A DNA stretch of 64,000 nt, taken from a virus. Both the position numbers and the translations under genes were made by a program. Positions within the stretch are counted from its first letter, which is position 1, and every line of letters begins with the position of its first letter. A model generated the notes under the pieces. The model worked only from the letters and a program-made list of their open reading frames with translations. It made no database searches and was not told where the DNA came from. Positions 12-22,645 of the stretch are shown here, piece after piece. The stretch is taken from positions 162,273 to 226,272 of the IMG/VR virus record IMGVR_UViG_3300045988_069849. The stretch is one strand, 5' to 3'.

Positions 12-1313
12 TCAACACTAATTTCTTTTATATCATAGTTATAGTAATAAGTACCGTTCCCAAGTTTTTGGATTGTCTAAGGATAAACGTCCATTTGTAT
101 TCTATTCGGCTCTAACATAAGGTGTTATTTTAAAATTTATAGGAAATTTGTATCTAAGCAAAGAATAGTGTAATCTCCTATTCTTACTTTTAAAATAGTA
201 GGGTTTATTGTTATACATGAAATGTACTCGAAAATGATTGTCATAATCAACAACCTCTACAATGTGAATATATTTATTATAAAACTTAGATATGTTAACT
301 TCTTTTCCATTCCAGTTAGAGAATTTCAATCCAGTTAATTCCTCTACCTTTCTCAGCAAGTTCTTAGAGTTGCAAAATTTCATCCATCCAAAATAAGACC
401 TCATTCTTCTATTCAATTCATCTTTATCAATCTTATTCTATTTATATAGATTTATAAGCCTAAACATCCTCATTTTTATAGATTTTTTCAGTAGAACATG
501 AGTATGATAGAATTTATAGCCTACGAAATCAATACCTCTGCTTTCTACAGGGAATATTTGATAATTAGGCTTCAACTCTAGGTTAAGAACCTGTTTCAAA
601 TATAGTTTTATAGATACTAATACATTTCTCAAATAATTCTTGTCATTACCAAGAATCACAATATCGTCAGCATATCGAAAGTAGTACTTACATTTTAACT
701 CCTCTTTTACCCAGTGGTCAAAATATGTCAGATATAAATTTGCAAAGAATTGTGATAGATAATTTCCAATAGGAACTCCCTTCGCTGAATAAATTATTTC
801 TTTCAACAGTTTTAATAGTTTTTTATCCTTTATCTTTCTCTATAACATTTCGTATAAAATGTCGTGAGTTATAGAAGGATAGAATTTTTTTATATCCATT
901 TTCAAGCAATACTTTGTTTCTTCTGGATGTTTCTATAACACCTTAAACAAATCATACTCTACTTTATGAATACCTCTATTTCGTATAGAGGAATATGTTT
1001 GGTCTATAAATATACTAGTCCAAATAGGCTCCATAATATTCATTATAGCATGGTGAGTTATTCTATCTGGATAGTATGGAAGTCTAAAGATTAATCTTTC
1101 TTTAGGTTCGTATATTATAAAGGTACTATATTCAGAGGTTTGATAAATCAAATCCCTTAACTTATCGGATAATTCCTTATTTTCTTTTAATCTATTCTTA
1201 TCATGCTGCTTGATTCCACATCTAATAGACTTATTTCTTCTAGCTTTATCGTCAGCTAGTTCGATGTTATCTTCAGCGTATACTTTCTCGTGCAAATATC
1301 CTACACGTTTCAA
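12..1313 (-). CDS. DGR reverse transcriptase; one frame read through in-frame TAG codons at 102-104, 438-440, 840-842, 933-935 (and 18-20)
   Basis: ORF-track fragments 933..1313, 438..806 and 102..416 (-) share one frame (lower coordinate = 0 mod 3) and each ends on TAG. The fragments contain RT motifs: RLIFRLPYYPDRITHHAIM (motifs 1-2), GVPIGNYLSQ (DGR-type SQ motif), YADDIVILG (YxDD). N-terminus LHEKVYAEDNIELADDKARRNKS resembles the DGR RT N-terminus. Apparent start is TTG at 1311-1313; putative TGA stop at 12-14. Confidence 0.8.
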
Positions 1314-1450
1314 TTTTTTATATATTTCATCGGAAGCGTTCGAGAATTAACCTACTAACACCCTTCATTCAACACTACGTTATCTTTTGCCTAGAGGCAA
1401 GGATATTACTTAGCAAACTAAAAAAAAATAATAAAATGTTTCTAAATATA

Positions 1451-1556
1451 TAATAACTCGACATTGGAATTGGCATTGCTGACGTCATTGTTAGAATTGA
1501 AATAGCTGAGACCTGCATTGCTGCCATTATTCGCGTTGCTGCCTACTAGCAGTACT
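1451..1556 (-). repeat. DGR template repeat (TR), A-rich in sense orientation
   Basis: A ~105-nt segment between the RT and the target gene. It is homologous to 1656-1762 and to 29043-29140. All ~27-28 mismatches against each copy fall at adenines of this copy, read on the minus strand. Confidence 0.8.
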
Positions 1557-1630
1557 TTTTTGCCAATCAACGGTTTTTAGAAGTAATATCCTACGATTTA
1601 TCATCTAAATCGATTTTTATATTGTATATC

Positions 1631-3448
1631 TTAAGATACTCTATTCAGAGTCCTGAACCCGACAATGGAAGAGGCACCGCCGACGCCACCGTCAGAATTG
1701 AAACAGCCGAGACCCGCACCGCCGCCAACATTCGCGCCGCCGCCCACCCGCAGCGTGCGAAGCGCTGTGCTGCTTGCGTTGCAGTAATGGTAATCGCAAA
1801 TATAAGTAGTAGCACTTCCTCCAACAGCGGATGGAATTATTTCAGCGGTTTCACCTAAGTCAAATGCCTTAATATAACCATCAGATGCTACTTCGTATCC
1901 TGCAACGGTTTTCTCTCCAACTACGTCGGTAAATTCCGATACGTTAGTAGTTGTATAGACAGTGCTAATCTCATTAGCAGCTGCTCTCACTATAACTACT
2001 CCGTCCAGGTTAGTCCAAATGTCTCCAAACGGATTATCGAACCCTCTCCAGCGAGGTACTTTAAATGTATGAGTTGCTACTGTATTTGTGCCATCTTGAG
2101 CTGTACATTCTGGAATAACTAAATCTTTTACTCCAGTGAAGTTACCAAATTCATTGCAGTAACCACAAGGCGTAAGTGGATATGTTGCATTATATCCTGA
2201 CCAACTTGTAGCTGCGTTAGCCCAATCTGTAACTCCAGGTCCCAAACCCCCTTGATGATATCCATCCGCAGTTAACTCTGCATTATATGCAGCCTAAGAA
2301 TTAAAATTAGCATATTCAATGACATAATTCCAGTAGAATATCCATTTGTAATATTCATAGCATAGCAATTCTGAACCAGCATTTGTTGCATATGTTCTCA
2401 TAGTAGCTCTAGAAATATTAGTTCTAGGCTTTCCTAAATCACTTCTGAATATATCCTTAGTTTCTAATTCTGTAGTTAGATAATCATCGTAGTTAGCTCT
2501 ATTTCCTCCACCTCTAAATGCAGTAGTAGTATTAACTACTGATACAGCTTTTGGAGTTGCGGAGACTGTGGTATCAACTGTACTTCTGTATGCATCTATT
2601 AATAGTTCAGGAATTTCTACCCATGAATCATCAATTTTGACAGTAGAAGTTCTAACCCATCTTTTGTTTCCATCGCTGCCAGATTTTCCATAAAATTTAG
2701 GAGTATTAACTCTTACTGTTCCATCAGTTCCATCTAAGACAGATGGAGTTTCTCCGTCTTCTTTATAAGACCAGTCATCTGGAAACAGATAGTAATTTAC
2801 TACATCATTGTTTGCTACACAACCTCTATACGCTGATTGAATAGGAAGAGATTTATGCAGCAAAGGATTACCTATTCTAGTAAGTTCCGGAGATGCTACT
2901 GTAACATCCCATTCTACTCCATAGGAATATAAATCCATATTACTATTTAGCTCAGTAATCTACTTATCAAGCTTTTGTTGTGCCTTCTACAATTCTTCCC
3001 AAGCCTCATTTAGCGCTGTAAATTGCTCTTCTAGCTTAGAACTTGAATCTGCCCATTCAGCAGTACCATCTGCTGAGAAAACTAGCATCTATCCAGATGC
3101 TCCTCCAGATGGAATATGTTTATTTCCAGAAGTAGTTGGATGTACATAATTATTAGCATTATTAGCTATAGTACTTAACTTTTCCTTCTCAGTTTCAGTA
3201 TAATTGGCTTCAGAAAGTCCCTTTCCTAACTCCTTATCTACTTTGCCTTCAAGCTCACCCTTAGTAGCTAATTCACTAATATCCTAATGCTCAGTTAAAT
3301 ATCCACTATCATTCTGTAACTAAGAAGTTTTAGTTGGAATTGCATTAGCCTTGGCATATGTCGTATCTATAACATTTCCAGCACCATCGTAAGTAGCTTT
3401 TAAATCGTATGTGGTTTCCCCAACCTTTATAGATTTGATTGCTGCCAT
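1631..3448 (-). CDS. tail fibre / receptor-binding protein (~605 aa); DGR target with VR1 at its C-terminus; in-frame TAGs at 2294, 2960, 2987, 3089, 3284, 3320
   Basis: One frame (lower coordinate = 2 mod 3) runs from ATG 3446-3448 to TAA 1631-1633, linking ORF-track fragments 2294..2938 and 1631..2245. It contains the conserved tail-fibre motif HIPSGGASG[Q]MLVFSADGTAEWAD, in which the Gln is encoded by TAG. The C-terminal ~35 aa are encoded by the GC-rich VR. Confidence 0.7.
1656..1762 (-). repeat. DGR variable repeat VR1
   Basis: A GC-rich island in an AT-rich genome. It aligns to the TR with ~28 substitutions, all but at most one at TR adenines. It lies at the 3' end of the tail-fibre ORF. 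Confidence 0.8.
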
Positions 3449-3461
3449 ATCATTGTATTAT

Positions 3462-3662
3462 TAAAGTTTCATCAACTACATCGTGATCTATTCCCTCTAT
3501 GGAAGCAGTTAGGTCCTCAACAGCCTTCTACAATTCTGCTTTAGTAGCATAGTTCTTGAGAACTTCCTAGTCTACTCCAGAGCCTCCTCCTATACTTCCT
3601 CCAACAACTTTTACTGGTTTGGCAGAACTCTTAAACTGTCCTTCAATATAAATTGTTCCCAT
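3462..3662 (-). CDS. small late protein (~66 aa), two in-frame TAG
   Basis: Manual translation with TAG=Q gives MGTIYIEGQFKSSAKPVKVVGG... It lies directly upstream of the tail-fibre start. Confidence 0.35.
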
Positions 3663-3689
3663 ATTGTTTAAAATATTAATTGTTCATTT

Positions 3690-5506
3690 TCTCCATCTAC
3701 CTCTACACTAGAACCTGGCTATAAAGCGTCTATCTTTTTCTACAATTCGGCTACGGCCTAGCTAATTAGTTCTTCTACCTCAGCTTTGGTGTAGTATCTC
3801 TCTATAAGATATTCGCTCCTAACATATCCAGTATCTTGTAAATCTTTTTCTCCATAGGTGCAATAATAAGTATCTTCTTCAGTCTTACTATTCTCAACTA
3901 GGTCATCATAATCAGCTTGTGGTAAGCATACAAGTTTTGGTACTTCTTCAGTAATAGCAACTTGCTTGCCTCCAGCAAATAGCCTGTTATCTTCTGTGGT
4001 AAGTTTAACAGAACTCTCAATAACTTGCTCAGTTCCTGTTTCCTCAGAAGGTTCTCCAGTTGTTCCCTATTGTACTTCTTTTTCTCCAATTTTCTAAATA
4101 GTAATATCAGAAGTTTCTACTGATGTAGATTTCAAAAGCTCAGTGCTAAATTCTTTAGCAGCAGCAGCCTAATCATCCTGATATTTTTTCTAGGTAACAA
4201 ATATGAAATCATCATCTCCGGTTTCAGGAGAGTCTCCCCTTAAACTTTCTTTTGTTACGTAATCTTCGGCTATCTAATCTGATAAATCAGATAATGACTA
4301 TTGAGTAGCATAAGTAGACTGAGCATTTTCCTTAGTAAGAAATTTGTCATCAACCTGCTAAATAGTATAATAAGCCTTAATATCTTCTGTAGTAACGTAG
4401 TTTCCAAGTTTTTGCAAACCTTGAACTATTTCATCAATCTACTTCTTGGAGTAATAATTTGTAGCAACCCAGGACTGATATTGATTGGTAGTATGATAAT
4501 TCTAATCCAAATATTCCTTAGTAATATAAACCTTTGCATCATTTGTGACGTCATATACATAGTAATATGTATCAGGCTCTACCGTCCCTTCCTCTACTAA
4601 CTTTAGATACTCTTCTTCAGTTAATGTTACTAAGTTCGGAATATCCGATTCAGTAGCAATCTAATCTTCACCTATAAATAATCCTTCAGACCTAACGTCT
4701 ACTACTAGCTAGCTCTCTCCCTCTACTACAGGAGATTTTATCTATCCAACAGTGATGCTTTCTAAGGAACCATCTCCATCTACCTTAAGAGTTTTATCTA
4801 ACTCGTCTTGGATGGCCTACTAATCTTCCTCATATTCTTTCTTTGTAACGAAGACAAAATCATCTCCTTCCATTCCCTCTCCTCTAAGACTTTCTTTAGT
4901 AACGAAAATATTGTCTGTTTCTTCCTTAGTATAATACTTAGTCAGGGATAGAGCTAAAGAATCATTAGAGACATAATTAGTAGTTAATTCTTCCAGTGTA
5001 GCATAATCTGATAGGCTGGCAATAGTGTTATCTAAGTCTGTTCTAATCTATACTACAGTAGTATTAAGGGCCTTCTGTTTTAATTGCTCTTCTATCTTTT
5101 TTCCCCATTCCGCAGATAGGTAAAACTAGTCATCGTCTAAGCTATCCTCATATATATAATAATATGTCTCAGCATGAAGATACGTTTTACTTTCATCTAT
5201 GGGCCTAAAATCGTCTGTAGTATTCTCAGACCATTCTTTATATTCAGCCTCTGTACAGGTGATTATCTAGATAGATTCATAGGATGCTTTCCATCCTTCC
5301 TTGTATTTAATCTTAGACTTATCAATTAGCATATAAATATTTCCGTTATCTATGTTAGCAACGGTCATACCTTGATAAGCATACTTCTCTGGAATAGAAT
5401 AAAGTTCGTCTAAGTTATTAACGACTGTTCTATTATCGAGAGGCTTCGGAGTTTCTACGGTTAAAGCGACACCTAAGGTAGCATCACCTGTATATTTAAA
5501 TGCCAT
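3690..5506 (-). CDS. late structural gene(s) with internal tandem repeats (DDFVFVTKKEYEED / DDFIFVTQKKYQDD); TAG-interrupted; probably 1-2 genes, internal boundaries unresolved
   Basis: Start is MAFKYTGDATLGV (ORF-track 5267..5506). The track fragment 3898..4089 is in a different frame. Coding is continuous only if TAG is sense. A ~45-nt repeat unit occurs at ~4170 and ~4840. Confidence 0.3.
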
Positions 5507-5507
5507 T

Positions 5508-7080
5508 ATTGTGATAGAATAAAGTTAATTTGATGTGGCAATGCTGAGGAGTAAGTATCTTTCTTAGTCCATACCTTGTAAGTAAATCCATTTATCTACT
5601 CGGTAGACGTTTCCCAACCACTTAGGTCTACATTTAAATATCCAAGTCCCCCATCTACGGTAAATGAATTTAACTATGTGTTACTTCCTGGCAATTTTAT
5701 AATAGCCTTACCACTTAGTGAAAATGTGATAGTTCCAGACGATTGTCCAAAAGGAACTAGCGCCTATTTAATCACACTATCAGTATTACCAGAATACCAA
5801 GGATATGTGGCTACTACCTAAGCGGTAGCGGAAATAGAACCAGCTTCTACTCTCTTATCTGTAACTTCTCCTTTATTGTTTATCAAATATTCTCCAGCGG
5901 CATAACTCACTGTACCAGAGTGAGTATAAGTACCAATAGAATTATATGTATCAGACTCTACAGGAGAACTGTTATAAGTAATAGTTTCTTGTCTGTCAGT
6001 TTCTTCTCCAGCATCATTCTTTATAAATGTAAGTGTAGGAGTTAATAAAGCAGTTCCTACTTCTACTATTTGAGAAGTAAAACTATAATAAAGCTATGGG
6101 TATACTAAATCTCTAACTACTGTTGGAAATAGTAAAGTATCAATAATCTCATTAAAGGGCTTGCCCTTAAGTTTCTCTACTGTAGTCCCTTCAATTACTG
6201 TTGAAGTAGTATCATCTGGGAGTTCTGTCTAATAAGTAGCTATAGTTTCTAAGTTAGTTTGTATATTAGTAATACTTTCAGTATTAGCTTCTACTTTAGT
6301 ATTTGTCTCTTGTTGTGCTTCCTAAGTTTTCTATACTTCTTTCTTTGTTTCTTCTAGAGCAGGTTCAAGATTCTTAACATAGATACCTGGAAGGATAATA
6401 GAAGAGGTTTCCTCTCCAATCTCCTATTCTATTAAATGAATAGCATTATCTTCCTAAGTAGATAAAATCACCTCTAAAGAATTATCTTCCTTTAGTTCTA
6501 TAGTTTTGGAATTTTGGAGACTATTCTTAATCCAATTAAGAATGTTTTTATCAACATCTATATTCTCAATAGCATTATTCAACTCAACTATAGCTTCATT
6601 GATTTTTACTATTTCTTCAGATAGATTATTAATCCCTTTTCTATTAGTATCAATTTCTCGTTGTAAATCCTCCTTCAATACAGATATAGAAGTTCTAATA
6701 TTGCTTATATCGACTTTCAGTTCTTCTATTGCTTCTGTATTAGATTCATATTCACTAATAAAGTATAGGGCATAGTCTAGGGCATCCTTCACAGTATTAA
6801 TACCTTCTGCAACGTCACTAGTATAGGTCCATTTTTGTTCTATATACTATACTAGGTCTTTTTGCAGTTCTATGGTTCCACTAATGTTTCCCCACAATAG
6901 ACTCTACTCATCAGCAATACCTAAGTTCTTTCTTACTTTAGCTTTTTCTAGTTCTGTCCTATATTCTCCTAAATAGTTATTTCTTAAGAGGGGTATAGGC
7001 TCACATTTTATAGGCTTACCCTTTTTACCACAAGGCACTATATCTGCGTTACTTACCGAAGTGTAAATAGACTGTATCAT
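5508..7080 (-). CDS. late structural protein (~520 aa, coiled-coil region; fibre/baseplate-like), several in-frame TAG
   Basis: Start MIQSIYTSVSNADIVPCGKKGKP at 7078-7080. It contains ORF-track fragment 6454..6792 and continues through TAG codons to TAA near 5508. The exact frame was not verified along the full length. Confidence 0.4.
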
Positions 7081-7234
7081 TCTAGTTTAATAATTGCTAT
7101 TTAATAAATTCGTGATTATCTAGTCTTACAGGTAGGTTAATAAAACAAATTAGATTAAGAATATCTTGATAATCTGGTTTATATCCCTTTTTGAGTTTTC
7201 TTAGAAAATCCTCATACCTTTTAATAGCCTTTCT

Positions 7235-7379
7235 CTTAAGAGCATCCACAACCTATACGTTTATGTCCATGGTGGTGATTATCACAGAATCCTCCACAGG
7301 TACGGAACATCGCTAGTAATCTCTCAGCCTCCATGAATTGTTTAAAGCATATTAAATAATCTATAATGTTAAGAGTCAT
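7235..7379 (-). CDS. small Cys/His-rich protein (MTLNIIDYLICFKQFMEAERLLAMFRTCGGFCDNHHHGHKRIGCGCS)
   Basis: Manual translation of a short ORF. Too short for the ORF track. Confidence 0.3.
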
Positions 7380-7481
7380 CCATATGAAATCTCGAGCAAA
7401 TATATCTGCTTCCTAATCTCTAGTTAGACACTTATTTAGTAAAGCATCAAAGAGTTTCTTACAATAATTAATGTAACACTA

Positions 7482-7967
7482 CTACAAGTTTCCTGTAAAG
7501 AAAACATCTACCTTACATTTTTTTATAGTAGTTCCTTCTATGTTTCGTTCAAGAACTTCTTTAACTGTACACTCTTCTAGCTTACCTTCTACTTCTTTAT
7601 ATAATTTTTCTCCATCAGTAACATAGATAGTCTCATAGTATTCCTTGTATTCGTCCGATGAATTTTCATACCATTTCATATTAGGAATAATGATATGGTC
7701 TACTACGTAATAACCATCATCCTTGACCTTAAACATACACGAGTCTAAGTCTTCTGTATGGTCATTAAGTAGGACATCTATCAGAGTAGCATCACTTATA
7801 CTAACTTTGATGATAGTATTCAAGGTAGCACTCTCACTATACTTATAGGAGTCGTAAGAAGTTACTACCTCTACATCTTCATCAATATACTAGCCATATT
7901 CTTTTGAGAAATCTTCTATCAGTATTTCCCCATTAATTTGGGTATGTATATCAATACTAAATTCCAT
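7482..7967 (-). CDS. late protein (~161 aa), one in-frame TAG
   Basis: ORF-track fragment 7482..7823 extends upstream through a TAG to the start MEFSIDIHTQINGEIL. Confidence 0.45.
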
Positions 7968-7980
7968 ATTGTAATAATTA

Positions 7981-8709
7981 AGACTCAATAGGCCACTAGC
8001 CATATTGAGCAGGGGTAGAAAAAGGTTTCCATTTACCTGCTTGTCTTATTCGTCTAGACATGAAGACGGAAGTAAATGATAAACTAATATCTTGAGGATA
8101 ATCTGTCCAGATATAAGAATATCCATCTGGGGTCGGAGGTAGTTTATCTAGTCCAGAAGAAGGCTGACCATTCCAATAGTAGTTATAGTCATATGCCTTT
8201 AGAGAAGTAACTTCTGTAGTTTCTTTCCCTTCAGCATCTATATACAGCGGATTTCCGTCCTCATCTGTTTTCTATTTATATTCTATAACTGGTGTTATTC
8301 CCTCGGTTCTAGTATATATAGTCTATATAATAGTAGAGACATCACTCGCTACTATTTCATAGATAGTAGTTCCCTATGATTCATCAGCTCCCTAAAAAGT
8401 AAATTTAGTTCTTTTCCATATATACGGATTCTCTTCTGTTGGAAGCTCAAAAGTATCAGACCACTACTTACTTGATAATTTTATTTCAGATTCATCGGCA
8501 GTATTAGCAGGGAGATAATGTATTTTAATAATAATACTATTAACTGCTTCACTTGAACCGGATAAATCTGATACCTACTTAAATAATTTTTTTAGGTCGT
8601 CTTCTACATTTGATTTAGAACCGGAAGCATTACTTATAATTACTGTCCCATCAGAGATAGGATAAATCTACTGCTAATCTTTGTTGTATACAATTGTTCC
8701 AGTTGCCAT
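7981..8709 (-). CDS. late structural protein (~240 aa), multiple in-frame TAG
   Basis: Manual translation MATGTIVYNKD[Q]QIYPISDGT... It starts directly after the portal stop. Confidence 0.4.
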
Positions 8710-8710
8710 A

Positions 8711-10882
8711 TTAATGTATTTGTCTTATTTTGTCATTATATGGATTTCCATCATGAAGCTAAGCCAACTCTATTTCAGTTCTTTTTTCTTCAATATCCAT
8801 TTGTCTATCTTTATAAGTAGAATCAGACTGAGCTTTAAGCCAGTTAACTTTATATTCTAACTGCATCTTCTACTATTCTAATCCTAGTCTCTATTCATCT
8901 AAGCTTTCAATCTTTTGCTGAGCTTTCTATAATTCTTGCTATAACTACTGAGCCTATTGAGAAGTTTCTTCTAATTTTTCTTGTAGTTGCTGAAGCTGAT
9001 TATTTTCCTCTTTGCGAACTTGAACAGCTTTCTTAACCTTATATTTAAGGTCTGTCAGACTCTTAGATGTAAGAGCCTCAAAAATAATATCTGGGTCCAT
9101 CTGTTGACTTTTTACGAACTCTGGAATGATTGCTTTTATAGTCTATAGATCTTCCATCACTTCTGAACTAGCAGTAATATGAATATCGTAGTCAGTAACA
9201 GTAAAATACTCAGGAAGTGCGGTGAATATCTGTTGATATTTATCCCCAAGTATAATAGTTCCAGTTAATCCTTTCTTATAAGTAACTTTAGCCTAATTAA
9301 GACTATCTAGTAGTATCTCGCAGGTTATTAAATCCATCTGCTAAAAATAGTGCTTAGTTACTATATACGAGTTAGCTACTCCCTACTTAATATTAGTAAC
9401 TGCATCTCTAGTTTCTATACCGTTAAGTCGTTCCCTAAATACTCCAGTTATTGATGATGTAGTTTGTTCTACTGATTGAATAGCTAATTCAATAGCCTAT
9501 ACAGCCTATGCTTTTAAGGTATCATCAAATCCGTTATATATCTAGTTTGGAGCTTGCTGTCCATCATTCCTACCTTCTTGGCTTGAGTCTATCCACATGA
9601 TACCACCTTTTTTATAGGCTAACCATTTTTGTACTCGTTCTGGCCATTTAACTCCTAAGTTGGTAGGCAACAGAGACATATCCATAATAACTCCGGCAGT
9701 ACCACTATTAGCTATTAGATTATCTCTATAATAGTTTAATAAGTCGTATCTATCCTACAGATGTGCACATTTTAATATAAGAGAATAAGGCTACTAAGAG
9801 CGATTTAAGAAATATACTCCATTTACCGATAAAGAACAGAAGTTGGGATTATCTTTAGATCTCATAACAGTCTTGTCTAATCCTCTAAGAATATATATCT
9901 CTTCTCCTATTCTAATAGTATTGTATCTCTACATCACAAAATCATCATCTGTTTCAATCCATTCAACATCATAGACTGGGATTAACTAGAACCTATGAGC
10001 ACTATATTCATTGTCTGGATAGCCGGGAATGGTTTCATGATTCTAATCTTCATTTACTACTGTACAAGTATCTCCATATACTCTTCTATAAACAGCAGCT
10101 GAATCATCAGCTCGCCATTCATCTTTTAGTCTTCTTAAATCTTCTCTAGATATTTCTTTGCCATATTTAGCTAAAATCTAACTCTTACTCATCCACTTTC
10201 TTACTACAACTCTATATGAGTTCCTTACATATGGAGATTCTGGATTTCTATCAACAAATGTATTAAGTGGGTTTAATACCTCTATTTCAATATTAGTTCC
10301 AGAAGCCGATGATTTCACTCTAAAGAATGTATAACCAGTAATTAATAGGTCTGTTAGTAACTAACGTAACTTAGTAATTAAATCGGTTTCTCTGGATTGC
10401 ATAATATAATGTACTATATTCTAAGCTGCAATTTCATATTGAGAAATAAAGGATTGGTCAATATCCTATATAATTTTATCTAACTAAGTCTTTACAGCTT
10501 TATCAGTAATATCCTTGCCATCAATAAACTTAAGAATTGAATTACTTAAATGGTCTTTCAAAAACTTTACTATTCCCTTGGTTATTTCTAGCTATTTTTC
10601 TCTTGTTATATTACTGATAGTATCTGAATCTTTGCAAGAAATTTTCGGAAGTATAGGAGTTCCTAAATATTCTCCAACTAGAGCATCTACGTGTTTCTTT
10701 AATAAAGGCGTAAACTCTACCGAAGTGGGGCTACCTATTCCGAAGTTTTCTTCCAGATAACGGAACTATTCAGGATCTCTTTTACCATTATAATAATTAT
10801 AAGCTTTCTGTAACTCATACTTATCATATACAAGTTCCGCAATAGCCTCGTTTGTCTTGTCTATCAATTCCTTCTCTTTCAT
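8711..10882 (-). CDS. putative portal protein (~724 aa) with a Q-rich C-terminal coiled coil; about 25 in-frame TAG
   Basis: A single frame runs from ATG 10880-10882 (MKEKELIDRTNEAIAELVYDKYELQKAYNYYNGKRDPE...) to TAA 8711-8713 when TAG=Q. It sits immediately downstream of terL and its size is portal-like. No motif-level proof. Confidence 0.45.
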
Positions 10883-11102
10883 AACATAAATTATGTTGTT
10901 CTGGAGGAAGTTTAGTAGCGTTATAATACTTAACTCTTTGTAACTTCCTACTTCTTAATTCTTCCTTAATAAATGGCAGAAATTCTTCGTCTGGTAAATC
11001 TGCTATTATTACTAATGGCATTTCTGACCTATCAAAGTTAAAAGAGACTTTATACCCAACTGGGTCTAAACTCTCAATATCTAGTCCGCCTATATACTCC
11101 AT
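10824..11102 (-). CDS. possible small ORF in an alternative frame, spanning the terL/portal junction
   Basis: ORF-track 10824..11285 is an uninterrupted 153 codons. It overlaps the terL 3' end and the portal 5' end in a third frame. Only the part downstream of the terL stop could be an independent gene. Confidence 0.2.
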   Translation of the reverse strand: MEYIGGLDIESLDPVGYKVSFNFDRSEMPLVIIADLPDEEFLPFIKEELRSRKLQRVKYYNATKLPPEQHNLCYEREGIDRQDKRGYCGTCI

Positions 11103-13437
11103 TTTGTACAAGTCCCTCATATATTCTAGGATCACTTGTTTCAACTCTGTATGGGTCATCATATTCGTTTCTTTGCATATTAAGTTCAGGAGTTTTCTTA
11201 GTTGGAATAACTCCAAATCTTTTAATTCCTCTCTCGTCGTAATAGTAACCAAAATCTTGGAACTATTCAACTTCTTTCTCCACAAGTACGGGCTGTCTTC
11301 CTGATAGCTCTTGGTCTGCCAACTCAGTCATACCTACAGCGGCTACAATATCATACTTACCCTTATTTTCATCATTATATGCAGTAAACTATTCTAGCAT
11401 TTCTTCGAACCATATAGTATGGCAATAGTCTTCTATAAAGGCGGCTGTTAAATCAGTATGCTATTCAATTATAGTTTTTGTAGCAGGAGTTCCATACTAT
11501 TTAGTAGTTCCATTTCTGACATCAGTTAGAGTAGCTCTTGGGCGCTTCATAAAATAGTTAAGGCATCCTTTTTCTCTAGCCCAAGTAACCATACCCATAC
11601 GAGTAGCTTCTATATTTATTTTACAATTATAATAGCGAGCTAAACACATAGCTATTTTATAGGCTTCTCTGATGTCTCCAGGTCTATCCTTGTACATAGC
11701 AACATACTGAGGGTCATTCATACCAAACGCACGTTTCTTAATCGTTATGCAGAAATCAGACGGATCTCTGGTTTCCTTAGAAGTCTAATTCGCTCCAATA
11801 TCAATACCGTCTATACCTGCTACGTATAAGTCTCGCATCTCTTTATAAACTGGAACTTCAAAATCCTAGCCATTATTTTCTGCTTCCTATCTAAGCTTTT
11901 CCATTTGTTCTTTATATAAGTCAGACCATATTGGATGCTCTAGAATTTTTACTTTACCATTGCTATTAGGAATCCATTTAAAGCCATCAATGTTATCCTA
12001 AGTATGTTTATTATTTTTGTAAAAATAATCAATATAACCACATTCGGGTCTTGGACCAATTTGTTTAAGTCTTATATTAGCTATCTATTCGGCAACTAAA
12101 ATTTTATTAAATTTATTAACACCTTCTAGATTAAATGCTTCTTCTGCATTCCAACAACGTTCAGCACATTTCTTTAGGTAGTCTTCTGGTACAGCTAACA
12201 GATTATCTCGCTCCTCCTATAAGAATTTCTTATATTCTACAGTATTACACACTCCTCTGTGGTCCATAAATTCTGGATTCAAAGATTGTATAAAGTATGG
12301 AATAAAGAATCCACTCTCTATAGTAGTCCCATCCTAAGTCCAATTATGTCTAAATGGAAGAATCTTATATGCTCTTGGATTATAGTAAATCTTTTTTAAG
12401 CCCTCTAGAGGAGCACCCATATCACCGCCAGTACCTCCAAACAACATTGTTCCACGAGGCATACCTTGAACTTCACAAAGTTCTTGACCTTGTACCACAG
12501 CGGTATCAAGTCCAGGCCAGGAACCAGCTTCATCATATATTAATAAATCTACACGGTCTCCACGAATGTTAGATGGTTTAGCTCCGTTAATTGCTACAAC
12601 CTCAGATTTAAATCCTACGTCTTCAAACTAACCATTTATTTTGATTTGTTTACCTGATTTCTTTCTCAAATCCTGGTCAATAAGTCGCAATTTAAAAAAT
12701 CCTCCTCCAGTACAGGTATTTAAGAATGTAAGAGCATTGTCAAACTTACTAAAGGTACCCTTAAGGAAGGTATCATTAAAGCAAGTAATCATAACCCTAC
12801 TTCTTCTAATAACAGAGTACATACGAGCAGAAAGAGAGGCGTTTATTTCAGAGAATCCAATAGAACGAGCTTTCATTAAAGCTGCGTGCTTGTGTAGCAC
12901 TCTAGCCATCTATAGATAATGAAAGAACATATAATGTGATGCAAAGAATATTGGGAAGTCATTATCAGTACCCTCACCAGAGGCTTTCTACTAGTCAATA
13001 GTAGGTAACTAATAGAAATTTAAGAAGAAGTAATTATCTCCAGTAATGGTGTATCCATTAACTGTCATTCCATACTTACATCTTCTATATTGCTCTTTCC
13101 AAAATTCGTTGTACCGCTTACTATCTCTAAGGTAGGGACAGTATTGACCAGTTCGTTTATATACTTCCCTAGTCTCGGTAAACCAATCTGGATTAAAGTC
13201 CAATCCATGAGTTTCGTCAATAGGTCTGTATCCAGTTATTTCATAAGATAAGGTAGGGTCAAATACTTCTATTTTATCTCCTATTTTAACATCCCAATAG
13301 TCAGAATTTCTGACCCTTTCCTCTCTTATTTTCTATACTAATTCTCTAGCTTCTTTAGCATCCTCTTTCTATTCTTTTTCTCTTACCTAATCTACAATAT
13401 TCTATATTTCTTCAGGTAATATCTTTTTTCTTGGCAT
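11074..13437 (-). CDS. terL: terminase large subunit (788 codons incl. stop), ~10 in-frame TAG
   Basis: One frame (lower coordinate = 1 mod 3) runs from ATG 13435-13437 to TGA 11074-11076, joining ORF-track fragments 13009..13203, 12628..12909 and 11497..11721. It contains the Walker B-like LLIYDEAG and an FGGTGGDMG motif. TAG codons sit in sensible positions, e.g. EEI[Q]NIVD[Q]VREKE[Q]KEDAKEARELV[Q]KIREE. Confidence 0.8.
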
Positions 13438-13439
13438 AA

Positions 13440-14006
13440 TTAAAAGTCTCCTGGGTCAAAACCATCCACAGCTCCAGCTCTAACAGTAGATTGTTCAGTA
13501 AGTTCTTTCTTAACCTAGTCTTCTAGTGTTATGAGTTCTTCATGAACTTTGTGAAGGGTAGCCATTTCCTTCATTACTTTTTCAGCCTGGAATACTGGTT
13601 TGCCGTTATTATCACGCTCATTTAAATCTACAATAGTTTCGAAATAATCAATAAACTAGTCTGCAGCTCTTTTAGCTGCTTCTAGTAATTTTATTGACTT
13701 GTTTGAATCTTGTAACGCTCTGTATTTCCTACAAGCTTCTCTAAATATAGGGTCATTAAATTCTGACTCTGTCAATCCAGAATCACTAATAGCTTCGTCA
13801 TGTCGTTCATGTTCCGAATACTAACTGTACGGACTTTTCCAGTCTATAGCTAAATAAATGTAAGATAGTTCTCTAGTAGCTCTATCCTTTTCTGCAGATT
13901 TATCCCTCTAGATTAAAGCCTTAAATTCCTTAACTAGCAATATCTCTGGTTCATTTATTTCTAGCTATTTAGTTAAAGTGTTATAGTTAAATACATTCAT
14001 AATCAT
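13440..14006 (-). CDS. putative terminase small subunit (~188 aa), 5 in-frame TAG
   Basis: Lies immediately upstream of terL. Manual translation MIMNVFNYNTLTK[Q]LEINEPEILLVKEFKALI[Q]RDKSAEKD... The assignment is positional only. Confidence 0.4.
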
Positions 14007-14037
14007 TAATCATTATCATACACATTAGATAATCTTA

Positions 14038-14616
14038 TTATTTCTTTTTCATTTTGGAACCGCACTTATTGACTTTCATTTTGGAACCACAAGCGTCTTT
14101 CTTAGCATATTGTTTTCTGTCAGGAACCCATTTTCCTCCCTGGAAATTACCCTTATGTCCCTTATTGGCCATAGTTTCCTAATCATTGTATTTATTGATT
14201 GATATAGAATCTCTTGAGGCTTCGTCTCTAGCAGATTTCATATCTTTCTTATACTAAGCTCTTCCAGCCTTAAATTTATCAACTTCATTAGCTTTCTTAG
14301 TAACTTTAGTTCCTTTTTGTGCTTTCTGGCAAGCTTTACAGATTCTACCGCCTTGCTTAAAATATACAAGCTCTTCTCCTTCTGGACATACTCCTTTTAG
14401 CTTCTTATAATACTCAAGCTTAGCTCCAAGCCTAGCCATTACTCCTCCTTGCATTTTCTGCATAAATTCCTGATACTTAGCTTTAATGCCGTCTTCTCCT
14501 AATTGTTCAGCATAAGCTTGTAAATCCTATTCAGATTGTACTTGTATTCCCTACGCAGCGGCATCTTGTATTAGATATGCCATAAATGCTTTTTGTAATT
14601 CTTCCTAGTTAGCCAT
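14038..14616 (-). CDS. basic Cys-rich protein (~192 aa), 3 in-frame TAG
   Basis: ORF-track 14254..14463 ends on TAG and continues. Start MANWEELQKAF at ~14616. The C-terminus ...CGSKMKKK ends at TAA 14038-14040. Confidence 0.4.
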
Positions 14617-14826
14617 TACTCTTCTACTTTAATTAAATCCTTAGTATTAAACACTGCTTCCTACATAAGTCCGGAATCAGTAAACCATCTACATCTTAAT
14701 CCTCGTAATCCTTGGTTATCTTTAAATAAAGCTGCTTCTCTTCTTAGAACAAGCATAACTGGAGAATGCATTACTTTACACTACCGTAAAGTAACACAAT
14801 CCCCAGGCTTAAAATAAACTTTTTCA

Positions 14827-19065: not shown

Positions 19066-19292
19066 TTCAATACCTTATAAGTACATATCTTGCCTATCTG
19101 TTTTCCTTGAATTGTTATTTGCGGAAGAAAATAGCAGGCTTGATTCTCAAATTCTTGAGGTACAAAGATATAATCAAACTTACTTCCAACTACCTTCTCA
19201 CAAACTTTATTCCAATCGTCTCCCTCTTCTATAATAAGAGTTTTAGCTCCTGTTGGAGTTACTACATAATTCTCATTTAATTTTATCATAAC
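19062..19292 (-). CDS. hypothetical protein (trimmed; the track ORF N-terminus is the tRNA)
   Basis: ORF track 19062..19364. The first ~24 residues overlap the suppressor tRNA. The likely real start is MIKLNENYVV. Confidence 0.35.
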   Translation of the reverse strand, partial: VMIKLNENYVVTPTGAKTLIIEEGDDWNKVCEKVVGSKFDYIFVPQEFENQACYFLPQITIQGKQIGKICTYKVLK

Positions 19293-19306
19293 TATTAATT
19301 TTGGCG

Positions 19307-19378
19307 TTGCCCTACTAGGATTCGAACCCAGACTAAATGATTTAGAGTCATCTGTGCTGACCATTACACCATAGGGCA
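19307..19378 (-). tRNA. amber suppressor tRNA, anticodon CUA (reads UAG), tRNA-Gln-derived
   Basis: Cloverleaf: acceptor tgcccta/tagggca, D-arm gtgt-aatggtca-gcac, anticodon stem gatga/tcatt with loop CUCUAAA (positions 34-36 = CUA), variable tagt, T-arm ctggg-ttcgaat-cctag, discriminator A. D-arm and T-arm are nearly identical to tRNA-Gln(UUG) at 34205-34276. Confidence 0.8.
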
Positions 19379-19383
19379 GTAAC

Positions 19384-19918: not shown

Positions 19919-20236
19919 AATTGTTTTCTTTTTAGTTATATACAACAATAACCTCCGAAAAGTTAAACGCAAAGTTAAAAAATTCTAATTCAAATATTAT
20001 ACATATTTTATATATTAAGGGGAAAGCCGGTACAGGTACTTTATATAAATAGCCCCCTGGGGTTATTATAAATTCCGACTTTTATATTTGGAGGGCAATT
20101 ACCTAGATTCCAAAAATTCATAGAGTGAGTGTAGTGGCGGTCCACAACCCCTTTAGTCCCCCCCTGTATATTGATATAAAACTAAAACAAAAACAAAAAT
20201 CAATTTCCAGTATTAACATTTTAAAATTTTAAGATT

Positions 20237-20683
20237 ATGACACTCGAAGAATTGAAAGACCAGAACGTAAGCGCAGTAGAAAGAGCTAAGGCAGTAGTAT
20301 CAGCATTGGGACTGAAAGGTGGTGAACGCTCAGTTGTTGTCGGCTTGTCAAAGGGCGATAAGTTTAAGTTGGTAGCAATGAACAAGGTAGATTTGCCTGC
20401 AAATGCCAACCAACCAAACCAAAGCAACTTTACACCGATTACATTTAGCACTGACACAGGTGCAACCATTGGTGCAAAACACTTTGCGGGCGTAGAAATC
20501 GACGACGATGCTCCGGCAATCGGTTCAACTCCGTTGGAAAATGCCGCTTTCCTTGTTTATTGCATTGACCACAATGTAACATTTAAGGTAGACAAAAAGG
20601 TAACGGAAGACATCGAAGCTACCACTGACCGCCAAGCCTACAAGAAAAATACTTACAAGCTGGTAGTGGAAGACTATGATTAA
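20237..20683 (+). CDS. hypothetical protein (148 aa), GC-richer than its flanks
   Basis: ORF track. Confidence 0.55.
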   Translation: MTLEELKDQNVSAVERAKAVVSALGLKGGERSVVVGLSKGDKFKLVAMNKVDLPANANQPNQSNFTPITFSTDTGATIGAKHFAGVEIDDDAPAIGSTPLENAAFLVYCIDHNVTFKVDKKVTEDIEATTDRQAYKKNTYKLVVEDYD

Positions 20684-21666
20684 AAGATTGGGGAGAAATC
20701 CCCTTTCTTTTACATACAAATAATCTTTGTAGAAATGGACATAAGAAAAAAGTTTAAGACTATAAAGTGTTTGTATAATTGGGGCATAATCTATGACCCA
20801 AAGACTAATGAAAAGTTAAATTTCAAATCCAAACGTGTTTATTGCGTAACTTCTTGGGCTTGGATTATGACCTATCAAAAGTCAGAAGAAGATATTCCTG
20901 AGATAATTAGGATACTCTTTGTAGATTAACTCTAAGGTACTATGAGTTTTAAATAAAGTGCCCACATGAACCCCATCATCGGAACGTTGGTTAACGGGGA
21001 AAACAACATCACAACAAATCAAATCAAAGTTTTTGTTTAGTTTTAGGATTGTATCTGGCAGCTTGGAAAGACAAGCAAAATCTTTATACCTATCTGCTAA
21101 TAGGTTTAGTGTTCAACGCGAAAATTCGGTAAAGGAAGGAGAGAAATTGTCCACTAAAAAGACCCTCAATTTCCGGACTTTTTCCGATTTTCAAAAAATC
21201 CGCCAGAGTAGGAGTTATATAGCTCACACTCTCTATAGACATTATTTAGTATTTAGCCTATAAAAAGGCAACAAAAAGCGAGGCTACGCAGAAGAGCCTA
21301 ACACCAAAAATAACTGCTACAAATTCTATGTGCATATTCGCAAACTTGAGCACTATAGGATTTAGGTTGAGCTGTAAGGATTGGTCACTTATAGCAATAT
21401 TATGAGTACTGCTGATATGTCAGTGACCGTACATATCACATATAAAATATGTTATACAATTATGTTAGAAGTTGCCAGGTCTAAGAAGCCTGATTAAAAT
21501 CTCTAGATAGTAAGAGAGAACCTCATAAGGGTTCATTTTCCATCTCGAATCTATTCGCAAGTTTTGAGATTAGCTACCTCAGAATTTAGTGAACGTTGAT
21601 AACGTTGTATGTCTGGAAAACATACTAAATAATCTCCTATCTTATACTAGTTGTCAAGATAGGATT

Positions 21667-21737
21667 TCCCCATTAGTATAATGCTATTGCGCCTTCCTCT
21701 AAAGAAGGAGATTCTGGTTCGAGTCCAGAATGGGGAA
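21667..21737 (+). tRNA. tRNA-like with anticodon CUA (second candidate amber suppressor), non-canonical D-arm
   Basis: Acceptor tccccat/atgggga (U1-A72), anticodon stem ccttc/gaagg with loop CUCUAAA, variable agat, T-arm tctgg-ttcgagt-ccaga, discriminator A. The D-arm lacks G18G19 and pairs weakly. Confidence 0.4.
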
Positions 21738-22097
21738 CTTGGTATTTGAGGACTACAACTACTTGTAGACTCTGTTGCAGTTAAAGATTATAATGGGTAC
21801 GCCCTGAGACTAATGCAGAGCATCTCTTATGAATAGAGGTGTCTTATCGTGAGATAAGGCAAAGTATTGTGAGATTGAGAGAATTACTAGCTAAAATGTT
21901 AGAAGAAGACCCAGATTCAAGTAGCAATATCTACAAAGAAATATGGGGAGCTTATACTGCTGGGATGAACTCCTTGCTCGAGTAGCAACAATTCCAAGCT
22001 TGGTGAATTAAAACTAGCTAACCTAATTACTCTTTATAAGGTTGAGAATGTAAAAAGAGAATTGGAATGGTAAGCCCATCTCCCTTCGTCCTTTGCT

Positions 22098-22140
22098 GGT
22101 TTAGAAGTGAAACAGAAACCAGCACTTTTTAGTAACTTAT
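22098..22140 (+). terminator. hairpin plus T-run (intrinsic terminator-like)
   Basis: gctggtttagaagtgaaacagaaaccagc followed by acttttt. Confidence 0.35.
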
Positions 22141-22153
22141 AAACTTTTATAAT

Positions 22154-22645
22154 ATGAATACATTAGCATTAGATCATGTAAACAAGCGCGCAGAATTCGT
22201 AATGTCGTTTACTATTCCTTTCAAAGCAGTTGAAGATCCAACGTCGCAGGCCAAGTGCTACAGTCCGCATGAAGTAATTATGGCATGGCGAGAGGTGTGC
22301 ATCAAAGCATTACGAATGAGAATCGATGCCTGTATGGAAATGTTGTTCCGCAACAAGGACAGAGTGATAGGCTCGGACGAACGTGGCGTTTTGTTTAAGA
22401 AGAAGAATGGAAACATTCACCACTTTTCTCATGCTAGCTGTTTTGCTATGGAGGCTTTCATAGAGATATTGGAAGAAGCAGAGAGTGCCGGGGACATAAC
22501 TTTCGATGCTCTTCAAATACAGCAACTGATGAAGGCTTTGTACTGGATTCCAGACGAACTGAAGAACGATCATCAGGGAATAGGTTTCGGAGAACTAATT
22601 GACTGCCTGCTCTGCATTTTTAGCAACTCTCTGATAAACGAGTAG
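22154..22645 (+). CDS. hypothetical protein (163 aa)
   Basis: ORF track. Confidence 0.6.
   Translation: MNTLALDHVNKRAEFVMSFTIPFKAVEDPTSQAKCYSPHEVIMAWREVCIKALRMRIDACMEMLFRNKDRVIGSDERGVLFKKKNGNIHHFSHASCFAMEAFIEILEEAESAGDITFDALQIQQLMKALYWIPDELKNDHQGIGFGELIDCLLCIFSNSLINE

Follow-up and report, generated by a model that had tools for sequence, protein, structure and literature searches.

Why should a phage that already encodes one tRNA reading UAG carry a second of different sequence in a largely non-coding island, and what would the second one do? We addressed this question for supB, a tRNA gene with anticodon CUA located in the window, by which we mean the whole 64,000-nucleotide stretch analysed here (positions 162,273 to 226,272 of IMG/VR virus record IMGVR_UViG_3300045988_069849). 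The argument draws on the following features.

39..14628, minus strand: block of late genes with TAG recoding (portal, large terminase, tail proteins), which the suppressor tRNAs would serve; from in-frame TAGs, PHROG matches and TAG/CAA/CAG exchange.
19306..19378, minus strand: supA, the first tRNA(CUA), on the late-gene strand; from ARAGORN and Rfam.
20929..21466, plus strand: conserved non-coding sequence upstream of RAGATH-14 with compensated hairpins; from nucleotide conservation with indels and RNAalifold.
21467..21638, plus strand: RAGATH-14 RNA (RF03145), a structured RNA of unknown function; from a full-length Rfam match of 184.6 bits.
21635..21664, plus strand: spacer hairpin between RAGATH-14 and the tRNA, UCCUAUCUU / AAGAUAGGA, with conserved loop UAUACUAGUU; from folds in ten lineages.
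21667..21737, plus strand: supB, tRNA with anticodon CUA (21699-21701), apparently of glutamine type; from ARAGORN, Rfam, cloverleaf covariation and a CUG orthologue.
21753..21812, plus strand: downstream elements, namely a hairpin CUACAA-CUAC-UUGUAG (21753-21768) and a block AUAAUGGGUACGCCCUGAGACUA (21790-21812); from sequence and conservation.
22095..22130, plus strand: stem-loop GCUGGUUU...AAACCAGC followed by ACUUUUU, tentatively a terminator of the island; from sequence.

The window belongs to a zeta-like crAss-like gut phage in which UAG is reassigned to glutamine. Its late ORFs, with PHROG matches to portal, large terminase (TerL) and tail proteins, contain 4-28 in-frame TAGs each, and TerL carries 11-31 TAGs in all relatives whose TerL is at least 67% identical. 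At 65 TerL TAG sites the commonest alternative codons in close relatives were CAA (39 sites) and CAG (21 sites), followed by Lys and Glu codons, placing in-frame TAGs at Gln-equivalent sites in essential genes. This codon exchange replaced an estimate from non-recoded TerL homologues about 49% identical, in which Gln and Glu tied with seven each. TAG-to-Gln recoding (code 15) with an amber suppressor tRNA(CUA) has been described for the zeta, beta and delta groups of crAss-like phages (Yutin 2021, PMC7886860), and the zeta family as recoded and CUA suppressor-bearing (PMC12386605).

The constant suppressor of this clade is supA, which is Gln-derived: it shares 78% identity with the tRNA-Gln(UUG) that the phage itself encodes, and nearly all TerL-anchored relatives have it, among them the ones lacking RAGATH-14 and supB. 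A supA-type tRNA also lies upstream of TerL in cr53_1. Both supA and supB were found in 16 of the 29 TerL-anchored loci of the clade, and in phAss-1 there are three genes for CUA suppressors, against two in its relatives (PMC10607447), so that two UAG readers in one phage are not the oddity that the original prediction took them for. In practice, two CUA tRNAs that differ in origin are to be expected when zeta-like crAss genomes are annotated. We rejected supB as a recent duplicate of supA, the two being only 65% identical. No synthetase or release factor was detected among the ten window proteins scanned, and supB presumably relies on a host synthetase.

That supB is a structurally sound second CUA tRNA was borne out by both ARAGORN, which called a tRNA with anticodon CTA at 21667-21738 on the plus strand, and the Rfam tRNA model (RF00005), which matched 21667-21737 with 56.5 bits (E = 1.6e-9) against a gathering score of 29. 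Its acceptor arm reads TCCCCAT/ATGGGGA (U1-A72), its anticodon arm CCTTC-CTCTAAA-GAAGG and its T arm TCTGG-TTCGAGT-CCAGA, with a variable loop of 4 nt, discriminator A and no encoded CCA; the anticodon loop CUCUAAA has 7 nt, with U33 and the purine at position 37 expected of an amber suppressor. The D arm is weak, as first read from the sequence. In the Rfam alignment the D stem comprises G10-C25, U11.G24, A12-U23 and a mismatched U13.U22; the loop that it closes, AAUGCUA, offers a single G in place of G18G19; the canonical tertiary signature G18G19-U55/C56 is accordingly absent, and the T loop UUCGAGU is canonical. Other CUA variants have D loops AAUGCA and AAGUCA, and GG occurs only in UUA variants (AAUGGA) and in L145. 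The missing G19 and the D-stem U.U mismatch of the window variant could reduce supB function.

Comparison of 13 distinct homologous sequences from related phages (a nine-sequence version was also run) showed 96.7% standard pairs in the cloverleaf pair cells versus 42-53% with slid partners, and none of 500 shuffles reached the observed covariation score. Six cloverleaf pairs were altered on both sides, with two compensatory changes in the anticodon stem, and the acceptor helix, also compensated, was 100% paired. The 7-nt anticodon loop with U33 and A37 is preserved in most lineages, and a sequence identical to supB occurs in many contigs from different samples. We conclude that supB is a genuine, conserved tRNA, more than chance would produce. 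The tRNA-Pyl label given by ARAGORN, which the anticodon alone decides, was rejected on the criteria of a 6-bp anticodon stem, a 3-nt variable loop and a T loop without T-psi-C; supB has a 5-bp anticodon stem, a 4-nt variable loop and the canonical T loop.

What the original prediction missed is that supB is the 3' module of a RAGATH-14 unit, at a position that a hammerhead takes in other crAss-like phages. The RAGATH-14 match covers model positions 1-190 with the terminal hairpin shortened (E = 7e-35; gathering score 149.1) and ends 28 nt upstream of supB on the same strand. In 12 of 13 first-round loci RAGATH-14 preceded the tRNA by 28-30 nt on the same strand, as it did in all 28 TerL-anchored loci with a full RAGATH-14, and the arrangement recurred in 23 metagenome contigs; every evaluable locus of the clade keeps this same-strand spacing of 28-30 nt. 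The spacer forms a hairpin that folded in all ten lineages examined despite differing stem sequences, and hence covaries; it was judged by per-sequence folds, the MAFFT alignment being out of register for pair counting. The Rfam RAGATH-14 model, of which the window holds a full-length copy, stops short of this 3' hairpin. Directly 3' of the hairpin stand UU and then position 1 of the tRNA, giving a U at -1, which is present in all slot tRNA variants and is the nucleotide that RNase P prefers there. RAGATH-14 itself is a candidate structured RNA that reportedly came from Breaker laboratory searches near ribozyme-associated genes. A full-text literature search returned no paper on it, and no passage was found in which a tRNA or a hammerhead is given as a fixed partner on its 3' side. 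In a collection of annotated phages, cr53_1 and MT839646 shared the RAGATH-14 portion alone, and nothing closely related to the island as a whole turned up.

Across about 70 RAGATH-14 copies, the covarying hairpin was nearly always followed by either a supB-type tRNA or a type-III hammerhead (RF00008), with one copy unclassified. In cr53_1 and L101 a hammerhead follows the same hairpin (Rfam 42.2 and 39.3 bits, E about 1e-5), and hammerheads occupy the slot in L002, L147 and 15 metagenome contigs, with two further truncated remnants. These matches fall below the Rfam gathering score; their folds show the canonical three-way junction, GUC lying at the 5' edge; six contigs have a CCGAUGAG core, and their hammerheads may be inactive. 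A slot hammerhead is predicted to cleave 8-9 nt from its own 5' edge, in cr53_1-type phages directly after GGGCUGUC. The hammerhead thus shares with supB the slot and the preceding hairpin, the evidence for their functional equivalence being positional. We infer a shared processing role because, in at least three other lineages, a 5'-cleaving hammerhead stands in for the tRNA at an equal distance, which suggests that supB also serves as the cutting signal of the RAGATH-14 RNA. Unlike the hammerhead, supB is not a ribozyme, and its cleavage would need a host enzyme. The earlier proposal of a regulatory tRNA-like RNA was therefore partly right in spirit, since supB is the 3' module of the RAGATH-14 unit in a hammerhead slot; the likely processing role comes in addition to decoding and does not replace it.

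Taken together, we favour, with a probability of roughly 0.6, the reading that supB would be a redundant second glutamine amber suppressor whose processing by RNase P also frees the RAGATH-14 RNA. RAGATH-14, the covarying hairpin and the tRNA are most likely transcribed as one precursor, which host RNase P would cut at the 5' end of supB, a single cut both maturing the tRNA and freeing RAGATH-14, whose 3' end would thereby be defined. The type-III hammerhead in the slot would do the same job in other crAss-like phages. After 3' trimming and CCA addition, supB would be charged with glutamine by the host enzyme and would help to decode the in-frame UAGs of the portal, terminase and tail genes.

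The word redundant reflects how the slot tRNA varies. Within the clade, and between phages whose TerL is 86-97% identical, its anticodon loop appears as CUA, UUA, CUG, a 6-nt or 8-nt loop, or is deleted, and the acceptor and T arms persist. Where the slot tRNA has CUG, UUA, a 6-nt or 8-nt loop or no D arm, TerL nonetheless contains 15-20 TAGs and supA is retained. Decoding by supB is therefore dispensable, given how often its anticodon loop drifts and decays, and supB is best read as a second suppressor that arose independently and largely duplicates the function of supA. The same pattern invites a stronger claim, namely that supB is a tRNA-shaped processing signal releasing RAGATH-14, downstream RNAs or both, with no meaningful use in translation and an incidental CUA. 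The anticodon loop is indeed the least constrained part and the acceptor and T arms are always retained, L128 and L222 keep a minihelix-like remnant in the slot, a hammerhead holds that position elsewhere, and without G19 the D loop is missing a nucleotide that the elbow contact requires. A signal serving RNase P alone, however, would need neither a twice-compensated anticodon stem nor the 7-nt loop with U33 and A37 kept in most lineages. Moreover, CUA is retained on three divergent tRNA bodies, the anticodons seen are not random but confined to the Gln/stop neighbourhood (CUG, CUA and UUA), and U1-A72 is invariant. We regard the signal-only explanation as unlikely.

It is also rather improbable that supB is an independently transcribed gene, with RAGATH-14 ending at the hairpin, the tRNA using its own promoter and the adjacency being mere synteny. 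The hairpin could mark the 3' end of the RNA, and the sigma-70 scan placed a weak match (9 of 12) at 21651-21679, partly within the spacer. The spacer is just 28 nt, however, and, being occupied by a covarying hairpin, leaves no room for a separate supB promoter. Promoter-like matches in the sigma-70 scan were at chance level (14 versus 11.7 expected), with a consensus inappropriate for Bacteroidota or phage polymerases. The hairpin as an intrinsic terminator was rejected, since no U run follows it and hammerheads come after it as well as tRNAs. The alternation with hammerheads is likewise hard to explain without shared processing.

Returning to the preferred reading of a glutamine suppressor, the body of supB looks glutamine-type. 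U1-A72, a glutamine identity element, is invariant in all 13 variants, in which acceptor pairs 2, 3, 5 and 7 vary, and supB combines it with kinship to CUG/UUG tRNA-Gln. The variable-loop/T-arm motif of supB recurs in 23 clearly cellular tRNAs; 12 of these were tRNA-Gln, mostly with U1-A72, and the remainder included ten Bacteroidia tRNA-Arg(CCU) with G1-C72. In L053/L162 the slot tRNA has anticodon CUG and its own compensatory U2-A71 change, and its nearest relatives bear CUA, so that the direction looks like a reversion from CUA to CUG; this orthologue is a single contig with an A52.C62 mismatch in the T stem.

These observations speak against the different amino-acid identity raised in the original prediction, which in its most plausible form would have supB insert Lys or a Gln/Lys mixture as a working amber suppressor and give UAG a dual meaning. 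supB has U35 and A73, a combination with which amber suppressors can become substrates of LysRS in E. coli. Its C-G pairs at 2-71 and 3-70 and its discriminator A depart from the identity set of E. coli GlnRS, and the phage's own tRNA-Gln(UUG) likewise has A73. The next rank of Lys and Glu codons at TAG sites and the T-arm motif shared with tRNA-Arg(CCU) point the same way. Against this, the CUG orthologue would mistranslate CAG unless charged with Gln, and Gln codons dominate the TAG sites, exchanging with TAG as CAA and CAG. In phages of standard-code hosts only TAG-to-Gln has been reported (bioRxiv 10.1101/2021.08.26.457843), and this assignment has proteomic support in crAss-like phages (PMC9523058). 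We consider a non-glutamine suppressor quite improbable.

A decaying pseudogene, as in the decayed duplicate once suggested, or a chance cloverleaf is very improbable and already largely refuted by the Rfam score and covariation, for although the D arm of the window variant is weak and a few relatives carry decayed versions (L128, L137/L138, L222), the window cloverleaf is intact, called by ARAGORN, compensated in its acceptor and anticodon stems, found unchanged in many contigs from different samples, and no near copy of supA.

By itself, a recoded phage with two amber suppressors is no novelty. Recoded gut phages have the same type of CUA tRNA and TAG-as-Gln late genes (PMC7886860, PMC12386605, PMC10607447 and bioRxiv 10.1101/2021.08.26.457843). 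Unlike the known phage suppressors, supB is not a copy of the main suppressor, has a D loop without G19, is coupled to RAGATH-14 and varies in its anticodon loop between close relatives; none of these four traits is mentioned in the recoded-phage literature examined. What may be new is the RAGATH-14 unit, the anticodon series and the co-occurrence with TAG recoding.

For the first of these, RAGATH-14 gains a handle, appearing as a self-contained unit in which a hairpin, together with a cleavage device that is interchangeably tRNA or hammerhead, fixes the 3' end. In MALAT1-mascRNA and MEN-beta, RNase P cutting at a tRNA fold right after the RNA makes its 3' end, and the tRNA punctuation model describes the same for mitochondria. 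Those systems are eukaryotic or organellar, whereas here the setting is a bacteriophage, the tRNA looks usable in most lineages and the processing is a prediction. The locus would be a case of phage tRNA punctuation and a natural counterpart of tRNA- and ribozyme-based release designs in synthetic biology. In phage T4 the tRNA cluster is co-transcribed with stable RNAs, species 1 and 2. GOLLD and ROOL RNAs likewise adjoin tRNAs in phages (PMC5737381), so that in each case, as here, a structured phage RNA of unknown function lies near tRNA genes and may be co-transcribed with them. The partner here differs in being a suppressor-type tRNA at a fixed 28-30 nt that alternates with a self-cleaving ribozyme.

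The anticodon series follows the one-step routes of Gln-derived suppressors in E. coli, where supE (glnV) arises by CUG to CUA and reads amber and the E. coli supB (glnU) arises by UUG to UUA and reads ochre. In contrast to those, CUA, UUA and CUG are here natural alleles of one locus in genomes that depend on UAG decoding. One locus with such a series in still-recoded phages shows how a redundant suppressor drifts, and bears on the origin and upkeep of stop-codon reassignment.

With regard to recoding, the RAGATH-14-bearing crAss-like lineages with an assessable code are all TAG-recoded (the window clade, L147 and the cr53_1 type including L214), and L068 probably is too, so that at least two crAss-like families combine RAGATH-14 with TAG recoding, a testable lead. 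It is doubtful that RAGATH-14 is part of the phage code-switch machinery, with the RNA released by tRNA or hammerhead acting on UAG decoding; its fusion to a suppressor-type tRNA in one clade counts for this. If true, RAGATH-14 could control suppressor supply or antagonise release factor 1, and the slot tRNA would be a tunable accessory, fitting the CUA/UUA/CUG switching.

The surrounding island largely matches the non-coding stretch of about 1.2 kb first proposed. Positions 20930-21838 contain only short ORFs and are conserved in relatives with indels that disregard reading frame, and the 3' part of a small gene, intact in relatives, survives at 21839-21985. An ORF at 21033-21263 was rejected, relatives having indels there. 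The sequence at 20929..21466 is probably a further structured RNA of the same island: RNAalifold found double changes at 9 of 41 pairs within 21256-21466. No Rfam family matches 20929..21466, and a permissive Rfam scan of 19000-22400 returned RAGATH-14, both tRNAs and, beyond these, just two sub-threshold matches put down to chance. The four genes flanking the island had no Pfam matches. Of the terminator-like structure placed at 22098-22140, a stem-loop at 22095-22123 followed by ACTTTTT stood up; it is common only to the window and its close relative L158, and the terminator scan passed over it because its loop is 13 nt. The block at 21790-21812 is conserved in all relatives, whichever tRNA variant occupies the slot.

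The CUA-anticodon tRNA at 21667-21737 (+), here termed supB, was called by ARAGORN (tRNA at 21667-21738, +, anticodon CTA) and matched by the Rfam tRNA model over 21667-21737 with 56.5 bits (gathering score 29; E = 1.6e-9), confirming as real the second CUA tRNA-like element of the original prediction.

Parts of supB, read from the sequence
Acceptor stem: UCCCCAU/AUGGGGA, with U1-A72
Anticodon arm: CCUUC-CUCUAAA-GAAGG, anticodon at 21699-21701
Variable loop: 4 nt
T arm: UCUGG-UUCGAGU-CCAGA
3' end: discriminator A; CCA not encoded

The predicted weakness of the D arm was also borne out, with a U13.U22 mismatch in the stem and a loop (AAUGCUA) that holds a single G at the G18G19 site. ARAGORN labelled the gene 'Pyl' because of the anticodon alone, and tRNA-Pyl was rejected because the T loop is canonical, the anticodon stem has 5 bp and the variable loop has 4 nt. 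Together with loci collected via the large terminase (TerL), sequence-pattern searches in metagenomes, GTDB genomes and IMG/VR yielded 13 distinct supB homologues, in which standard pairs filled 96.7% of cloverleaf pair cells, compared to 42-53% with slid partners. Six pairs had changed on both sides (acceptor stem n = 4, anticodon stem n = 2), and the observed covariation score was reached by no shuffle. Judged by this pairing and covariation, supB is maintained by selection as a cloverleaf, anticodon stem included.

The window carries 29 tRNA genes and one tmRNA, and its ORF coverage rises from 59% under the standard code to 85% with TAG as a sense codon. This recoding effect is local: minus-strand ORFs within 39-14628 contain 4-28 in-frame TAGs each, whilst the large plus-strand ORFs past 20 kb are mostly free of them. 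Recoded ORFs encode the portal, large terminase and tail proteins. The nearest annotated TerL relatives, at 25-29% identity, are crAss-like phages, and two unannotated faecal contigs reach 43-44%. These matches, the 110-190 kb size of related IMG/VR contigs, a G+C content of 36% and the tRNA array fit published descriptions of zeta crAss-like phages (PMC7886860; PMC12386605). Among relatives, TerL TAG codons exchange mainly with CAA (39/65 sites) and CAG (21/65 sites), so TAG encodes glutamine, in accordance with earlier reports on such phages (PMC9523058; bioRxiv 10.1101/2021.08.26.457843; PMC10607447). In two relatives (L162, 10001-13522; L167, 10001-13529) the TerL match spans ~3.5 kb rather than 2.36 kb, with many stops in a simple frame count, which suggests an intron or intein insertion of the kind reported for zeta crAss-like phages.

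The first CUA tRNA, supA (19306-19378, -), shares 78% identity with the tRNA-Gln(UUG) that the phage itself encodes. Identity between supB and supA is only 65%, and supB has no close match among the other window tRNAs. Nearly all TerL-anchored relatives carry supA on the late-gene strand, including those with TerL only 67-73% identical, in which supB is absent from the flank, and a supA-type tRNA lies just upstream of TerL in cr53_1 (Suoliviridae), itself TAG-recoded. This wide presence identifies supA as the constant suppressor and supB as an additional, lineage-restricted one. CUA suppressors in recoded crAss-like phages are already documented, as is their occurrence in several copies, with three in phAss-1 and two in its relatives (PMC10607447); a pair of UAG-reading tRNAs in one phage is therefore less unusual than originally supposed.

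Upstream of supB, the Rfam search revealed a structured RNA, RAGATH-14, followed by a short hairpin.

RAGATH-14 unit
21467-21638 (+): RAGATH-14 (RF03145), 184.6 bits (gathering score 149.1), E = 7e-35; its end lies 28 nt from the start of supB
21635-21664 (+): spacer hairpin, then UU, then supB

The spacer hairpin folds in ten lineages with stems that differ in sequence and a conserved loop, marking it as an RNA element that is probably part of the RAGATH-14 RNA. The architecture of RAGATH-14, hairpin and tRNA is fixed, with RAGATH-14 adjoining the position held here by supB (the slot) in 12 of the 13 loci from the first round (the remaining locus is too short to judge), in 28/28 TerL-anchored loci with a full RAGATH-14 and in 23 metagenome contigs. 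Across all samples, every RAGATH-14 copy whose downstream sequence could be read had a tRNA or hammerhead, intact or as a remnant, after it. The sole exception is L068, a 98-kb contig in which (8522-8650, +) RAGATH-14 and the usual hairpin precede a sequence recognisable as neither of the two. The element after that hairpin had no Rfam match at E up to 0.01 and may represent a third class of 3' element. In cr53_1 (L249, NC_055889.1), the supA-type CUA suppressor upstream of TerL is annotated as 'tRNA-Gln' (6664-6738) and late genes contain 1-21 in-frame TAGs each; RAGATH-14 and TAG recoding thus co-occur in a second crAss-like family. Since RAGATH-14 occurred only in TAG-recoded lineages among those assessable, it could belong to the phage code-switch machinery, a proposal we consider doubtful; the lineages number just four or five, and common descent could account for the association.

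Two kinds of element alternate in the slot, a tRNA and a self-cleaving ribozyme. After the same hairpin, a type-III hammerhead replaces the tRNA in crAss-like phages of ~100 kb (cr53_1, L002 and L101), in the zeta-like L147 (whose TerL shares 74% identity with that of the window) and in 15 metagenome contigs, with truncated ribozymes in two further contigs. Rfam Hammerhead_3 scores were 42.2 and 39.3 bits (E 7e-6 and 5e-5), short of the gathering score, 48.5. Both core motifs, CUGAUGAG and CGAAAC, are clear, as is the three-way-junction fold. In metagenome contigs L211, L219, L221, L233, L235 and L245, CCGAUGAG replaces CUGAUGAG (U4 to C, catalytic core), a change that could either abolish ribozyme activity or be tolerated as natural variation. 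Type-III topology places the scissile bond after GUC, which on the fold would fall 8-9 nt from the hammerhead 5' edge; for a tRNA, the RNase P site is the 5' edge itself. Because both are cut at or near the 5' edge, either device would free an RNA made up of RAGATH-14, the hairpin and a short 3' tail. All slot tRNA variants have U at -1, the nucleotide that RNase P prefers. A dense structured-RNA array in L101 (8580-10531, -) has a self-cleaving ribozyme after each of three RNAs (hammerhead after RAGATH-14, twister-P1 after RAGATH-6, hatchet after RAGATH-7), with RAGATH-9 and a permuted tmRNA further along.

We favour, with a probability of roughly 0.6, the reading that supB is a working Gln-type suppressor whose RNase P processing frees the RAGATH-14 RNA. 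RAGATH-14, hairpin and supB would form a single transcript, cut by RNase P at 21666/21667 to mature supB and release the RAGATH-14 RNA; supB would then be trimmed, receive CCA, be charged with glutamine by a host enzyme and contribute to UAG decoding in late genes. The state of the slot was compared across the 29 TerL-anchored loci whose flank contains RAGATH-14.

Slot states among the 29 loci
CUA tRNA: 16/29
UUA tRNA: 7/29
CUG tRNA: 1/29
tRNA with 6-nt anticodon loop: 2/29
tRNA with 8-nt anticodon loop: 1/29
tRNA without D arm and anticodon loop, acceptor and T arms kept: 1/29
Hammerhead: 1/29

A D-arm deletion was also found in the slot tRNA of a metagenome contig (L222). TerL retains 11-20 in-frame TAGs in all phages of this drift set, and supA was detectable in all except the hammerhead-bearing L147, a redundancy that, alongside the drift, indicates that decoding by supB is dispensable while the tRNA fold at the slot is kept. 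A drifting anticodon loop on a retained fold is what would be expected if supB were purely a processing signal, but the compensatory anticodon-stem changes and the persistence of CUA on three divergent bodies make this unlikely and argue that supB in most cases functions as a tRNA. Independent transcription of supB, its adjacency to RAGATH-14 being mere synteny, appears rather improbable.

The UUA tRNA, with its ochre-type anticodon, occupies the slot in L124, L125, L127, L132, L159-L161, L189, L192 and L227; its D loop has the normal GG, and genes of these phages mostly end in TAA with TAG recoding retained. L189 (DXLM01000001.1, 'Bacteroides sp.' MAG, 186,052 nt) and L192 ('Clostridium sp.' MAG, 153 kb) are phage-sized and probably represent this clade binned into bacterial genomes. 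The 8-nt loop CUGCAGAA of L145 (2092-2164, -) and the 6-nt loop UUUAAA of L137 and L138 (2174-2243, -) could mark defective tRNAs, the former alternatively a quadruplet reader.

Four observations favour glutamine over the different amino-acid identity originally raised for supB. U1-A72 is constant in 13/13 variants, whilst pairs 2, 3, 5 and 7 vary. The slot tRNA of contig 3300045988_050979 (L053/L162) has anticodon CUG on a body nested among CUA-bearing relatives, with its own compensatory U2-A71 change, in a phage that keeps a TAG-recoded TerL and supA; CAG would be mistranslated unless this tRNA were charged with glutamine. With UUA as a third slot anticodon (in seven TerL-anchored loci plus three further contigs), the series comprises exactly the states connected by classical Gln suppressor mutations. 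Finally, clearly cellular tRNAs sharing the supB variable-loop/T-arm motif (n = 23) included 12 tRNA-Gln, mostly with U1-A72, ten tRNA-Arg(CCU) with G1-C72 and one tRNA-Met. These observations point to a glutamine-type supB with predicted Gln charging. Because C2-G71, C3-G70 and A73 depart from the identity set of E. coli GlnRS, lysine or mixed charging stays a minor rival, though a very unlikely one. That supB is a pseudogene is scarcely credible. In the literature retrieved, we found no description of a suppressor-type tRNA coupled to RAGATH-14, of its positional equivalence to a hammerhead or of a single locus that passes through such a series of anticodon-loop states.

Further features of the island and window
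20929-21466 (+): conserved non-coding region upstream of RAGATH-14, several hairpins with compensatory changes, one with conserved loop UUCGCAAACUU at 21338-21348
21790-21812 (+): block AUAAUGGGUACGCCCUGAGACUA with GGG-UACG-CCC hairpin
21839-21985 (+): 48-codon GTG ORF
22095-22123: stem-loop, then ACUUUUU
39354-39436 (+): ARAGORN 83-nt 'tRNA-Tyr(ATA)'
41365-41437 (+): Rfam tRNA, 39.5 bits, no ARAGORN call
43323-43887 (+): tmRNA match, 62.1 bits

The non-coding island of the original prediction holds for 20929-21466, which matched no Rfam family and is possibly an undescribed structured RNA, but not for 21839-21985, where the 3' part of a small gene survives as a fragment; L125, L137 and L139 carry this gene intact (MKEKMKRIEEYTKAMRELLAKMLEEDPDSSSNIYKEIWGAYTAGMNSLLE). 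The 21790-21812 block shows conservation in every relative, regardless of which tRNA variant precedes it in the slot. The terminator-like structure is recognisable at 22095-22123 and may terminate the RAGATH-14/supB unit, but is common only to one close relative (L158). The tRNA at 39354-39436, with a 15-nt anticodon-arm loop in RNAfold, could contain an intron or be aberrant, and the 565-nt length of the tmRNA match, against a 374-position model, suggests that the phage tmRNA gene holds a large insertion.
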